A DNA stretch of 64,000 bases, taken from the NCBI GenBank assembly GCA_964016885.1, contig OZ024740.1:77748001-77812000 (forward strand), written 5' to 3'. Under the pieces are notes generated by a model. It searched no databases and was not told where the DNA came from. It saw nothing but the letters and a program-made list of their open reading frames with translations. Numbering within the stretch: the first letter of the stretch is position 1; each line of letters begins with the position of its first letter. This DNA comes from Eledone cirrhosa (Eukaryota). Shown here in pieces: positions 1,581-60,759 of this stretch. A program made the position numbers and the translations under genes.

Positions 1581-1761
1581 TGTTATTGTAACTGTAACTT
1601 TGACCAATATATGACGCAATACACTGGCTTTATAATGTTTTTACGTTTGAAATGTTTGTTTTCATCGGATACATAAATACCTACCTACATACATACATAC
1701 ATACATACATACATACATACATACATACATACATACATACATACATACATACATACATACA

Positions 1762-2058
1762 TGGTGGCTGCCAACTCGTTTTCGAGTACGGCCACTACTT
1801 TATATCCATGTAGGCGAACCCCTATCGATGCGCTGAACGAGTGTGACATTTTAGTCCAGCCAGTGACTTGAAAACTCTCGTACAAACACTACACTTGTGA
1901 CAATTATTGACACATAGTGCTGGGCCCATGGTACCATGTGACGACAAGTGCAGAGAGATCTCCAGATATAAAGCAATGCCTCTGCGGTGAAGCTTTTATA
2001 GTGAGCAAAGGCACTGCACAAAGCCAGTCCCACTCTCTTAACCAAGATGATATTTACC
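1762..2058 (-). mobile_element. 5'-truncated copy of a non-autonomous RTE-type retroposon
   Basis: Near-identical to the 3' half of the copies at 7558, 10325 and 34529; flanked by (ACAT)n on both sides. Confidence 0.8.
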
Positions 2059-2122
2059 AACATACATACGTACATACATACATACATACATACATACATA
2101 CATACATACATACATATACATA

Positions 2123-57830: not shown

Positions 57831-58057
57831 GCGCGATTCCCTCGGCCTCAGTGACCAAAGTCAGTGGAGAGGGGAAGGTAATGTTTCTGTAGCACGTGTT
57901 TTAGCGTCTATTCACTCTCTCTCTCTCTCCCCCTCTCCCTCCCGCTATCCGCCTCTCGTAGTCTGTCTCTTTCTTTCACTCTCACTCTCTCTCTACGCAC
58001 GTGTTTCCACTGTCGGACAGACAGACAGAGAAATTTCTGGTTATATATATATAAGTA

Positions 58058-59512
58058 GATAACAGAACACACTCACTGTTTGGTTGGTTTTCGCTTCTGT
58101 ATCTTTTATTTGGTAATCAATGTTTATCATTGATTGACCAACGGTTAAAAATACAGATATAAATATATACAGGGTGTTCGGGATAAATTTGACAGAATAA
58201 TATTTGGTTGTTTTTTCAGATGTTTTAAATTCATTCATGCCCACTAGGCTTTATTTGAAAGTTTAAACCCTCCTTCATTCATATATGTGATGACAACGAG
58301 AATGGATGACTGGGAGCCACCTGAATCATGGAAGAGAATAACTTGTATCATGATGATTCGCGCCGGCCATCAAAATAAGGAGATTATGGTCGCTGCTCAA
58401 TGCACCCTGAACACTGTAAAAACAATCCGGCATGAACTGGAGAATTGCAATGGAGACTACGAGGCTGTGGCTAGAAGAAAGAAACATAACAGAAGATCTG
58501 ATTGCTCTCGCACAGCAGAATTCCTCGAAAATCTGCAGAAAAAAGTGTTGGAGGACCCTGGCATCGGAATTCGGTCTTTGTCGCATGAATTGAAGCCCTG
58601 GATAACAAGGGTAGCCAATAATAGGCCGTATGTATGGCAGCTGGATTCGGCCCCCTGCCACACCTCGGGGAAAAGTCAAAAATGGTTGTCAGCCAAGTTT
58701 TACGACTACACCAGTCCCAATGTTTGGCCTCCGAACTCCCCTGATCTTAACCCGATGGACTATTATGTATGAGGCGCTGTAGAGAAAGACACCAATCGCC
58801 GTGCCAGTACTACAAAAGCCCAGTTAATCGACAGAATTAAAGTAGTTTTTGAGGGCCTTCCCAGGCAAAGTGTAAAATCAGCTTGCTCTAGGTTCCGGGC
58901 CCGGATTGAGGCTGTAATAGACGCTAATGGAGGTTATTTTGAGTAAAACTCTTTGACAATAGTGTAATTTCCTTCTCCATTGAATTTCTTTTAAACCAAA
59001 TAAATTTTGTAGATACCAAGCACTTTTTCTTTTTCCTGATGAAACTGTCAAATTTATCCCGAACACCCTGTATATAGTCTATATATATATATGTGTGTGT
59101 ATAATAGTTGGTGTGTGTATTCGCGTTTTTGAGTGTATGTATTTTGGTTATTGTATTCTATCTTTGTTTACTAGTGTGTGTTTATATGTTTCTTGTTATT
59201 GTACTTGTGTATATATTTATTTATTTATTTATTTATATTTCCCTTAAGTCAGTATTGTTTGTTTGGGTATGGTTGTTGTTGTTATTCCATTCATTTTTTC
59301 TGTTTAACTTTGGTCTTCTAAGCTCTATCTCAGTTGCTTCTCTGATTTGCCTACCTGTTGAGTCATTTCTATGTTTAGATATTATTTTAATTTCTATGTT
59401 GTCTATATTACCGTCCTGTCTCTGTCTGGCGTGTTCGTATAGTACTGAACCGTTTTTTTTACCGTTTATCCCCCCCCCCCTCCTCCCAATGCTTCTTCGA
59501 GCTGTCTCACCT
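58058..59512 (-). mobile_element. Naiad-type family A 3' fragment interrupted by a mariner
   Basis: 59233-59512 encodes YIGETAR..VLYEHAR..LNRKNEW; 58058-58165 matches pLTR 38590-38720 in reverse. Confidence 0.8.
58170..59070 (+). mobile_element. Tc1/mariner DD37D (maT-type) internally deleted transposon
   Basis: Perfect 26-bp TIRs CAGGGTGTTCGGGATAAATTTGACAG, TA duplication; WQLDSAPCH..WPPNSPDLNPMD with 37 residues between the two aspartates; C-terminus IDANGGYFE after a TGA. Confidence 0.92.
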
Positions 59513-60759
59513 ATATATATATATATATATATATATATATATATATATATATATATATATATATATATATATATATATATATATAGAGAGAGAGAGAGAG
59601 AGAGAGAGAGAGAGAGAGGGGGGTGTTGGAGGAGAGATTCACGCACTGACACACGAGTTCTGTCGCGAAAATATCTGGCCGAAGACTGTAAAATAGAATA
59701 CATACTTAGTCGGGTTTCAATTGCTAATCGGCTTTTTTGCCTCCATACAATTAATCAAGCGACTCTTCTGCATGATGTTCTTTCGGTTCTCAAATTAGGA
59801 ATCTTTCAGTGACGAGGCTACAGGCCCGATCGTTTTTGTCACACGGCCGCATGAAGACGTTGGGGGCACTTTGCAACTTTCATTTATGGTGTATATTCAT
59901 GATGCACAGTGGCAGGGTAATCGAAGTAAAGAGCCAACATGACCTTGATTTTGCCCCCCGCACCTGACGTGCATTTTATGATCTTAGCGATGTTGGATGC
60001 TTTCATTGTGATGACTAAGCTTTCGTTTCTGGGTCGTACACATACAACCAAGTCTCATCTCTAGTTATTGCGGTATTCAGAAACTCGGAGTCCTTGTTGG
60101 GAGTATTCAGCAGGTCATACACTATTTCAAAACGAAGTTGCTGTTGTTAACGAGAAAGCATCTTGGACATATCTAAATTCTCCTTTAAAATTTCGTGTGC
60201 AGAATCCTTACTGATCGTAACCTCGTCACCGACTTCCATCCATCCATCCATACATACATACATATGTGTGTGTGTGTGTGTGTGTGTATGTGTGTGTGTG
60301 TGTGTGTGTTTGTGTGTGTGTGTGTGTGTGTGCGTGTGTGTGTGTGCGTGTGTGTGTGTGTGTGTGTGTGTGTGTGTGTGTGTGTGTGTGTGTGTGTGTG
60401 TGTGTGTGTGTGTGTGTGTGTGTGTGTGTGTGTGTGTGTGTGTGTGTTTATCTATCTAATTATCTAAGTGTGTGTGTATATATGTATATATATGTATGTG
60501 TCCCTTCAATGTCGACATCAGTCCTCGAGGGTTGTCTGTTCTTGTTGAGTTATCCTCTGCTAAAAATAATAGCTAAATCTCATTTTGATCAGAGCTGATG
60601 AATGGTCCCGGGTTTCATTCCAACCAACAGCTCGTAAGTGGATATGGATGTCACGTGAAGACCTACACGCCTGACCTATTTTATATGCATTACTCATATG
60701 TATTGTACTAAGTAACTAATACATTTTATTTTATCTTTTTCTAAGGCAGTGAAGGTAGC

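Follow-up and report, generated by a model that had tools for sequence, protein, structure and literature searches.

The 64,000-nucleotide stretch analysed here, called the window, lies on contig OZ024740.1 of the Eledone cirrhosa assembly GCA_964016885.1 (positions 77,748,001 to 77,812,000, forward strand). It carries retroelements of several clades that lie in microsatellite arrays: Dong-like elements with a restriction-like endonuclease (RLE), RTE and Tx1-like long interspersed nuclear elements (LINEs), which belong to the groups with an apurinic/apyrimidinic endonuclease (APE), a short interspersed nuclear element (SINE) and Penelope-like elements (PLEs). The window was mapped by tandem repeats, open reading frames (ORFs), self-similarity, Pfam and a library made from natural element copies. 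The family labels DongA-C, RTEa-e, Tx1a-c, SINE1 and PLEa-d were coined in this analysis. The following features were found (window positions, strand in brackets):

1763-2060 (-): RTEa, copy of a non-coding RTE derivative of 606 nt, truncated at the 5' end, (ACAT)n at either side
2122-5628 (+): DongA, near full-length R4/Dong-like RLE element with internal deletion and broken ORF, CATA at both junctions
5645-6462 (+): DongB 3' fragment with CCHC and PD-D/E region, followed by (CATA)n at 6462-6590
6591-7474 (-): RTEe, 5'-truncated; the ORF end with its C2H2 fingers (7012-7474) is followed by the cassette (6631-7011) and a last piece that reaches 6591 and ends in ATGT
6652-6834 (-): SINE1 in the ATT part of the RTEe cassette, on the RTEe strand
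7558-8124 (-): RTEa copy flanked by ACAT arrays
8217-8557 (+): DongA 3' fragment with an (ACAT)n array at either side, tail-to-tail with RTEc
8662-9700 (-): RTEc, RTE derivative with partial ORF, ends in ATGT
10077-10258 (-): RTEb 3' fragment, ends in ATGT
10325-10930 (-): RTEa, complete 606-nt copy, no ORF of 100 amino acids inside
10953-11252 (-): RTEd fragment with a flip of array polarity on the 5' side; same strand as the neighbouring DongA, the exception of the window
11281-11930 (-): DongA 3' fragment, (CATA)n at both junctions in element orientation
20303-22564 (-): DongC, 5'-truncated, (TAA)n at either side
22581-24092 (-): DongC, 5'-truncated, head-to-head with Tx1 across (ATT)8 at 24092-24115
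24116-27832 (+): Tx1-like LINE, 5' end of subfamily c and ORF2 of subfamily a, internally deleted, (ATT)n at either side
27854-33687 (+): Tx1b, full-length two-ORF LINE, ORF2 with APE, reverse transcriptase (RT) and zinc finger, (ATT)7 before and (ATT)8 after
34529-35134 (-): RTEa, complete 606-nt copy in (ACAT)n
35421-38763 (no strand assigned): PLE cluster, PLEb ends inverted, PLEa RT ORF at 36073-38046 (+), (TA)n at outer flanks
45317-46202 (+): PLEc fragment with GIY-YIG, TA-rich flanks
50489-53482 (-): PLEb, RT and GIY-YIG pieces, inverted end, (TA)n at either side
54818-55305 (+): short repeated unit around (TA)n arrays, labelled PLEd (putative PLE)
55605-56502 (-): DongC 3' fragment, 5' junction in (TTA)27 at 56503-56583
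56581-56675 (+): SINE1, 5'-truncated, in the same (TTA)27 array as DongC and in opposite orientation
59128-59518 (-): old PLEa-like fragment ending at (TA)37

A preliminary description of the window, made from the sequence alone, had assigned each group of elements to a repeat, and this was reproduced: DongA and DongB end in CATA, RTE-type elements in ATGT, DongC in TAA and Tx1 in ATT, while the PLEs end in (TA)n. Most of the RTE elements listed there are copies of the 606-nt non-coding RTEa derivative, and SINE1, which sits in ATT arrays on the Tx1 strand, had been overlooked. The claim that elements sharing an array always point in opposite directions holds for most pairs, but RTEd (10953-11252) and DongA (11281-11930) lie on the same strand across (TATG)n. 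This is the only parallel RTE/Dong pair of the window and is accounted for by a flip of array polarity at 11200-11281. The switch from (ACAT)n to (TATG)n at this place is probably an inversion or deletion breakpoint.

For a genome-wide sample, the 30 best matches for each of nine element ends were collected from the 3.0-Gb assembly, 60 loci were extended outward to reach 5' ends, and 40 evenly spaced 10-kb stretches (400 kb) served as controls. De-duplication on 100 nt around the 3' end left 546 copies with an intact 3' end. The 3' flank was ACAT for 38 of 49 DongA copies (3 mixed, 8 other) and 37 of 46 DongB copies, and in no case ATGT; it was AAT for 50 of 52 DongC copies and never ATT, and ATT for 55 of 61 Tx1a and 43 of 48 Tx1b copies and never AAT. 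RTEa (n = 99) was followed by ATGT in 72 copies, TA in 7, mixed repeats in 7, ACAT in 2, TG in 1 and other sequence in 10; the two copies scored as being on the wrong strand (L092 and L112 of the sampled loci) lie in TA arrays with C interruptions. Each of these flank classes made up 0.5-2.7% of random control windows.

A 5' junction was scored as lying in a repeat if the repeat was found within 20 nt. Copies with the 5' end outside the locus or masked were left out of the counts, as were 2 DongB and 8 DongC copies longer than the reference and 6 Tx1a rows of another subfamily. The same repeat on the same strand was present at the 5' junction of 34 of 43 DongA, 27 of 31 DongB, 17 of 29 DongC and 81 of 95 RTEa copies, as well as at all 32 full-length Tx1 copies and 12 of 31 truncated ones. 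Only one 5' junction across all families had the repeat solely on the wrong strand, and the chance of a match was 1.3-9.5%. Many of the misses, though not all, are explained by later insertions, deletions or short arrays. The possibility raised at the outset that 5' flanks would lack the matching repeat throughout the genome was not borne out; since the repeat is present there, the arrays are mostly targets and not tails. The rule of motif and strand holds genome-wide, far beyond chance. The notion of a strict partition of elements by repeat is correct in that no Dong or Tx1 copy lies on the wrong strand, but it is too strict for RTEa, which continues as ATGT in 67 and as ATAT in 25 of 99 copies and thus has (TA)n in common with the PLEs. 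Among 38 PLE clusters with both flanks readable, TA was found on both sides in 12, on one side in 17 and on neither in 9 (chance 5.3% per side).

The orientation of neighbours, defined as elements with only a microsatellite between them, was equally biased. DongA/B and RTE neighbours were opposite in 69 cases and parallel in 2, so that the antiparallel arrangement noted for (ACAT)n is general without being invariable. DongC and Tx1 in (ATT)n arrays were antiparallel genome-wide as well (20 opposite, 1 same), and DongC and SINE1 were opposite in 14 pairs and parallel in 2. Overall, Dong elements and their RTE, Tx1 or SINE1 neighbours gave 105 opposite and 6 parallel pairs (111 pairs), while neighbours within a class were parallel in all 167 cases. 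Orientation relative to the repeat is therefore not random. Whole DongA-DongB-RTEa cluster units were also found tandemly amplified with a period of ~2.2 kb (L020-L023), and so were RTEa 3' ends (L161); clusters thus also grow by tandem duplication.

Passive accumulation, i.e. random insertion or entry at breaks in fragile purine-pyrimidine arrays with survival at harmless sites, was put forward for Drosophila Waldo (PMC3812793) and would profit from a genome dense in microsatellites (522 TA, 205 CA/TG, 16 CATA and 17 TAA arrays in the 400 kb of controls). It predicts, however, no family-specific motif, register or strand, and the rare CATA (0.17%) and TAA (0.12%) arrays are used while the commoner TA and CA arrays are ignored by DongC and Tx1. 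Together with the strand bias of 105:6 and 167:0, this makes passive accumulation hardly credible compared with insertion into arrays as targets.

The preliminary description had further supposed that tails made by one clade create targets for another. The paired families do not act in this way, as the 3' repeat of RTEa and Tx1a tracks the local array. The G content of the 5' and 3' flanks of RTEa is correlated (rho 0.43, p 2e-4, n = 70), and in L267 a Tx1a copy is followed by a single ATT and then by (CTT)n. The 5' flanks of full-length Tx1b always hold at least 5 ATT units (21 copies), while the 3' flanks hold as few as 2.

A true tail-maker was found as the flank of one Tx1b copy. It is a young LINE with RT (L406:1-1416; L407-L436), absent from the window, whose 3' ends are at least 99% identical with a duplicated terminal unit, and which we take to be CR1-like from its motifs. 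It ends in (ATT)2-8 at unique sites. Of its 28 independent best copies, 27 had at least 3 ATT units at the 3' end; at the 5' junction this was the case in only 2 of the 16 that were visible. The junction test is thus able to separate tails from targets, and the CR1-like LINE makes ATT tails without targeting arrays.

It could be argued from this that every family writes its own repeat at largely unique sites, and that matching 5' flanks result from landing in earlier tails or from growth by slippage. The CR1-like LINE proves that such tails exist, and the Tx1b at L406/L407 sits in one of them; moreover, in 23 of 30 full-length Tx1b copies an earlier Tx1, SINE1 or RTE lies at most 420 nt upstream of the 5' end, and in certain DongC and Tx1a copies a long array follows the 3' end with no repeat in the 5' flank. 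Against this, Dong, RTEa and Tx1 have the repeat at both junctions with the 3' repeat of RTEa following the 5' one, and only one of the 405 earlier loci had a CR1-like 3' end next to Tx1, Dong or SINE. Tails of the CR1-like LINE are a further source of targets, rare in this sample, and an origin of the arrays as tails is very improbable for the targeting families. Concerning Tx1b itself, the family is very young, as 40 of the 40 genomic matches listed are 100% identical over the last 268 nt and most copies are full length; three copies were found in tandem, 5.8 kb apart (L214-L216). In Logan contigs from four runs (two samples at most), the left flank of a young Tx1b locus proved to be another repeat, and no joint spanning the element was among the matches listed.

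The more frequent source of targets is carried by RTEe. Its 3' untranslated region (UTR) does not stop at the (AC)n of 6896-7011 but extends to 6591 by way of a cassette of the form (GT)n-(TA)n-(ATT/GTT)n-(T)n, whose ATT part contains the SINE. RTEe had initially been taken for an RTE with a (GT)n end and hence for a counter-example; this was ruled out, the GT run being internal to the 3' UTR in 29 sister copies. Sister copies were used as empty and filled orthologous sites. In a first sample of 30 copies, including that of the window, the ATT/GTT part of 9 held an insertion. A second sample was picked by body sequence ~1 kb upstream; 2 repeats of the first sample and 3 tandem duplicates were dropped, so that 35 of 40 matches were used, and 6 without body end were removed. 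Of the remaining 29 copies, 7 were filled and 19 empty, 1 had a PLE in the TA part and 2 could not be resolved. In total, 16 of 59 cassettes were filled; the 9 SINE1 and 5 Tx1 insertions lie on the ATT strand and the 2 DongC insertions on the other one, whereas the RTEe body had 0 interruptions over 39,241 nt. One of the DongC insertions is an intact ORF of 1141 amino acids lying antiparallel inside the cassette (L367:4908-8330, minus strand), and another cassette contains Tx1b plus RTEa (L370). RTE-borne arrays hold 6 of 30 full-length Tx1b 5' ends and 5 of 30 3' ends.

The longest pure ATT run in empty cassettes measured 2-13 units with a median of 5 (35 copies). By eye, filled cassettes mostly had 3-12 units (3 in L239, 5 in L398, 10 in L381, 11 in L368 and 12 in L318; ~24 in L313). 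Compared with their empty counterparts, L239 had 3 versus 3 and L398 had 5 versus 3, and there was no gain in L244. Insertion into the cassette hence adds about 0-6 units, which is compatible with a short target duplication and speaks against tail synthesis. The sister copies show the nesting order to be RTE cassette first, then SINE, Tx1 or Dong; the relative order of neighbours merely sharing an array is not readable. Seeding across clades, as proposed before, therefore takes place through the RTEe cassette and rarely through CR1-like tails, but not through the tails of the paired families. An ATT run was also seen upstream of the RTEe ORF (L365, L366), abutted by a Tx1 3' end in L365. The end of the RTEe ORF encodes three C2H2-type zinc fingers (window 7023-7470, minus strand), which are candidates for array recognition.

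Taken together, the families appear to insert into existing microsatellites with fixed polarity, the Dong-like elements in one direction and RTE, Tx1-like elements and SINE in the other, probably by nicks on opposite strands. We assign this reading a probability of roughly 0.7. In target-primed reverse transcription (TPRT), synthesis is primed on the nicked strand, and the first-cut strand can be read from the sequence following the 3' end. The restriction-like endonuclease of Dong, with a predicted Myb-like N-terminus, would accordingly nick the (ATT)n or (TATG)n strand, whereas Tx1 and RTE, by means of their APE, would nick the (AAT)n or (ACAT)n/(AT)n strand. Read literally, the APE junctions of Tx1 and RTE would both be AT|A, a T-A step preceded by AT. 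At the 3' end of the RNA, a few repeat bases probably pair with the primer and set the register. Priming on opposite strands would give any pair sharing an array a fixed opposite polarity. Each insertion would split one array in two with a net gain of ~0-6 units; in this way all families would continue to find targets in the cluster and no element would be disrupted by another, new targets being dispersed by the RTEe cassette and by the ATT tails of the non-targeting CR1-like LINE. The clusters suggested earlier to be self-feeding would be so by array splitting and the RTE-borne cassette, and not by reciprocal tails.

Polarity could instead be directed by the RNA: nicks would be loose on either strand, only those pairing with repeats at the RNA end would be extended, and target and strand would be inherited by read-through of the donor flank. 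Such a role of the RNA end was put forward for RTEs (PMC6007223). It would fit the fixed 3' register of every family (CATACAT in 40 of 49 DongA, ATTATTA in 52 of 61 Tx1a and 44 of 48 Tx1b copies), and some terminal units do seem to be templated, as a DongC subfamily has specific degenerate end units (TAACAAC/TAACAAT in 11 of 52 copies). The invariant overlap is tiny, however; it amounts to 2 nt in RTEa, which is found before ATGT and ATAT and yet keeps the polarity of the G-rich strand in mixed arrays. The minimum of 5 units upstream of full-length Tx1b, compared with 2 downstream, fits recognition of upstream DNA, and the CR1-like LINE ends in ATT, too, without targeting arrays. In the telomeric elements TRAS and SART, it is the endonuclease that decides on the site (PMC7265360). 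RNA-directed polarity is thus unlikely, and for these reasons (the RTEa overlap, the Tx1b minimum and the CR1-like LINE) the enzyme rather than the RNA end is favoured as setting the strand.

Several points weigh against insertion with fixed polarity. Six Dong/APE pairs are parallel, the flank composition of DongA (rho -0.37, p 0.08, n = 23) and DongB (rho 0.20, p 0.37, n = 23) is uncorrelated between 5' and 3' sides, and the repeat is often missing at the 5' junctions of truncated Tx1 and of DongC. SINE1 is loosely sited, with 17 of 22 control copies outside arrays. Long arrays could also stem from slippage after insertion into short seeds, nick positions are not readable from junctions inside a repeat, and the enzyme roles are predicted ones. 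As the anchors were the best matches of each family and bystanders were sampled beside them, the counts favour young, clustered copies; neighbour pairs inside one cluster are not independent, and the 40 control stretches contained only 18 LINE 3' ends, none of them on the wrong strand. Unique target site duplications (TSDs) were rarely readable inside arrays. Microhomology at 5' ends averaged 0.8-2.7 nt versus 0.3-0.4 nt in the null, which is one-directional and was hence not used as evidence. Relative ages from bystander copies mix subfamilies and give no order among families.

Pfam detected RT in DongA and DongC, APE and RT in Tx1b ORF2, and GIY-YIG in two PLE ORFs of the window. The intact DongC ORF of L367 matched RVT_1 and zf-RVT but not Exo_endo_phos, and the motifs CxxC..H..C, RH, N-PD and K are conserved across DongA, DongB and DongC. 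The Dong families have the R4/Dong layout as judged from sequence motifs: a single ORF with RT, a CCHC finger, a PD-(D/E) restriction-like endonuclease and no APE; we assume that these motifs resemble R4/Dong rather than HERO, and the homologues retrieved included no named R4/Dong reference. The model of DongC (predicted local distance difference test score, pLDDT, 85.8) had R2 proteins as best fold matches (E 3e-36). No CxxC or C2H2 motif of an N-terminal zinc finger was present in the first 450 amino acids of DongC or of P0001, the closest full-length relative of DongA. The lack of such fingers sets R4/Dong apart from R2 and NeSL/Utopia (PMC7998251, PMC4640811). A four-helix domain is predicted for amino acids 45-135 of DongC (pLDDT 83.6), whose top structural neighbours are mostly Myb/SANT/trihelix proteins, with weak scores (Z 5-6); Foldseek and Pfam returned nothing for this N-terminal domain.

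DongC has the (TAA)n target of Dong in the strict sense (50 of 52 3' flanks, 17 of 29 5' junctions). DongA and DongB use (CATA)n and can therefore be considered as R4/Dong-like only. Their lineage is ~30% identical to DongC, and DongA and DongC fell into separate lineages in a quick unrooted tree (47 rows, no named anchor or outgroup), so that the use of CATA belongs to another branch. As TAA is the widespread state, we infer that the target switched from TAA to CATA. A 5' ribozyme similar to that of hepatitis delta virus was described for B. mori Dong (PMC3774820). At gathering score, neither a ribozyme nor any other RNA family of Rfam was matched by the window, L350, L351, L365 and L367, where divergent ribozymes would be missed, and ARAGORN found no tRNA. 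The 5' ends of DongC vary between subfamilies, and the 5' leaders of one subfamily (L351, L352, L354) include a degenerate SINE1-like stretch in antisense, which may be a neighbour captured from a shared ATT array.

ORF2 of Tx1b (29976-33428) contains Exo_endo_phos, RVT_1 and zf-RVT, and together with the upstream ORF (28615-29979) it has the two-ORF layout of the Tx1/L1 group. The Tx1 label was adopted from the preliminary description and from a resemblance that we presume. At least three different 5' ends or ORF1 regions are joined to close Tx1 ORF2s (window 24116-24320; L347, L342), which suggests turnover of 5' modules. SINE1 has ~25 nt of the 3' end and the strand in common with Tx1 and is for this reason likely mobilised by it, although its choice of site is looser. 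RTEe is an RTE of the autonomous type. The RTE layout was found in its genomic copy L365, a 3.6-kb element broken by stops with APE followed by RT on one strand; this is the only copy in which the APE of the RTE families was found. The closest named homologue of this endonuclease is from Octopus bimaculoides (77% identity), and the named homologues are annotated as 'craniofacial development protein 2-like', a protein that presumably holds an RTE endonuclease. RTEa has no coding capacity for APE or RT of its own, and RTEb-e have its terminal motif and 5' sequence in common with it; it is a non-autonomous derivative, probably mobilised by an RTE partner. Its 5' start was fixed in 42 of 95 resolved 5' junctions. 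The PLEs, with RVT_1 (weak) and GIY-YIG matches, inverted or tandem ends and TA on at least one side in 29 of 38 clusters, fit endonuclease-positive (EN+) Penelope-like elements.

The microsatellite load of the genome is explained only to a small part. In the controls, CATA made up 0.17% and TAA 0.12% of the DNA, together ~0.3% versus 4.4% for (TA)n; in the window, CATA arrays reached 1.34%. A library element was touched by 6 of 15 control CATA arrays (1.5 expected) and 8 of 16 TAA arrays (0.7 expected), these arrays together amounting to 1,147 bp. The 322 control TA arrays sum up to 17,517 bp, and 30 of them touched a library element (15.6 expected). These contact counts are lower bounds because the library is limited to window families. 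The suggestion that the retroelements help to explain the load is thus weak, since the greater part of it, (TA)n, is left unexplained by the families studied.

Microsatellite targets as such are known from Dong with (TAA)n, Kibi/Koshi and Waldo/Mino (PMC3812793, PMC7998251) and from HERO and Togen families (PMC4640811). DongC fits fully to the Dong elements of the R4 clade (B. mori Dong, DongAg, DongBg, Darwinula Dong), while DongA/B differ by the use of (CATA)n and mixed CA/TA arrays. Kibi/Koshi (Tx1) and Waldo/Mino (R1) are APE LINEs specific for TC, TTC, ACAY and AC (PMC3812793). The Tx1-like families described here target (ATT)n instead of TC or TTC, and Waldo, whose ACAY overlaps the ACAT target, belongs to the R1 clade. 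The closest parallel is TRAS1/SART1 of Bombyx telomeres, two non-LTR (non-long terminal repeat) families that occupy one tandem repeat in opposite directions, the endonuclease determining the site (PMC7265360). These two belong to the R1 clade, carry APE and lie in telomeric (TTAGG)n, whereas the present pairs are RLE versus APE, occur in two cases (CATA and ATT) and lie in dispersed microsatellites on many chromosomes. The 3' UTRs of RTEs can consist of simple sequence repeat (SSR) units and spread microsatellite families (PMC2887409), their 3' repeats affect the choice of site (PMC6007223), and a microsatellite makes up most of the 3' UTR of an octopus RTE (PMC9115989). In contrast, the RTEs studied here have arrays at both junctions and no clearly recognisable unique TSDs, and an internal cassette serving as landing site for other clades is not reported in the accessible parts of those papers. 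The (TA)n bias is shared with the PLEs Naiad and Neptune (PMC8557442) and offers nothing new. SaTar Mutator-like elements (MULEs) of guayule and rice form non-nested linear arrays of unrelated elements via microsatellite targeting (PMC5907723); these are non-autonomous DNA transposons, and here retroelements of four clades with strand polarity are concerned. The young LINE groups of O. vulgaris are RTE, Dong-R4, CR1, L1-Tx1 and Penelope (PMC13282606), and the available text of two cephalopod repeat papers does not discuss target repeats (PMC8967140, PMC13282606). No CATA-targeting Dong, ATT-targeting Tx1, antiparallel RLE/APE pair or cross-clade RTE cassette was found in the literature searched, though curated cephalopod consensus entries may already record targets.

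Target-specific LINEs are usually described singly; here, at least four clades share few microsatellites under strict strand rules, and empty and filled sister copies show one clade supplying landing sites to others. With two unrelated enzymes on one substrate, the control of target and strand in TPRT becomes testable at the level of the endonuclease, the Myb-like domain and the RNA end. If fixed polarity is correct, the intact DongC and the very young Tx1b offer themselves as a pair for studying how the strand is chosen on a single substrate, and DongA/B versus DongC represent a natural switch of specificity from TAA to CATA. Array splitting would provide a mechanism for transposable element hotspots and non-nested clusters in octopod-type genomes, the bulk of the (TA)n load excepted. 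Microsatellite markers and short-read calls of transposable elements in such genomes fall on element junctions and call for caution. A wider picture, which we offer tentatively and rate somewhat short of even odds, is a microsatellite 'food web', in which RTE would provide the landing pad, CR1-like LINEs would contribute ATT tails and four targeting clades would multiply the arrays, with RLE and APE inherently bound to opposite strands in two independent cases (ATT and CATA) and the TAA to CATA switch within R4/Dong.

The window contains three further repeat features. A 91-bp unit forms six tandem copies, 95% alike, at 17658-18205 and was also found beside DongC in L057. The remnant of a Tc1/mariner-like DNA transposon (DDE_3 match) with terminal inverted repeats and TA flanks lies at 58170-59071, and a degenerate (TGG)n array of 208 units with higher-order structure occupies 935-1559.

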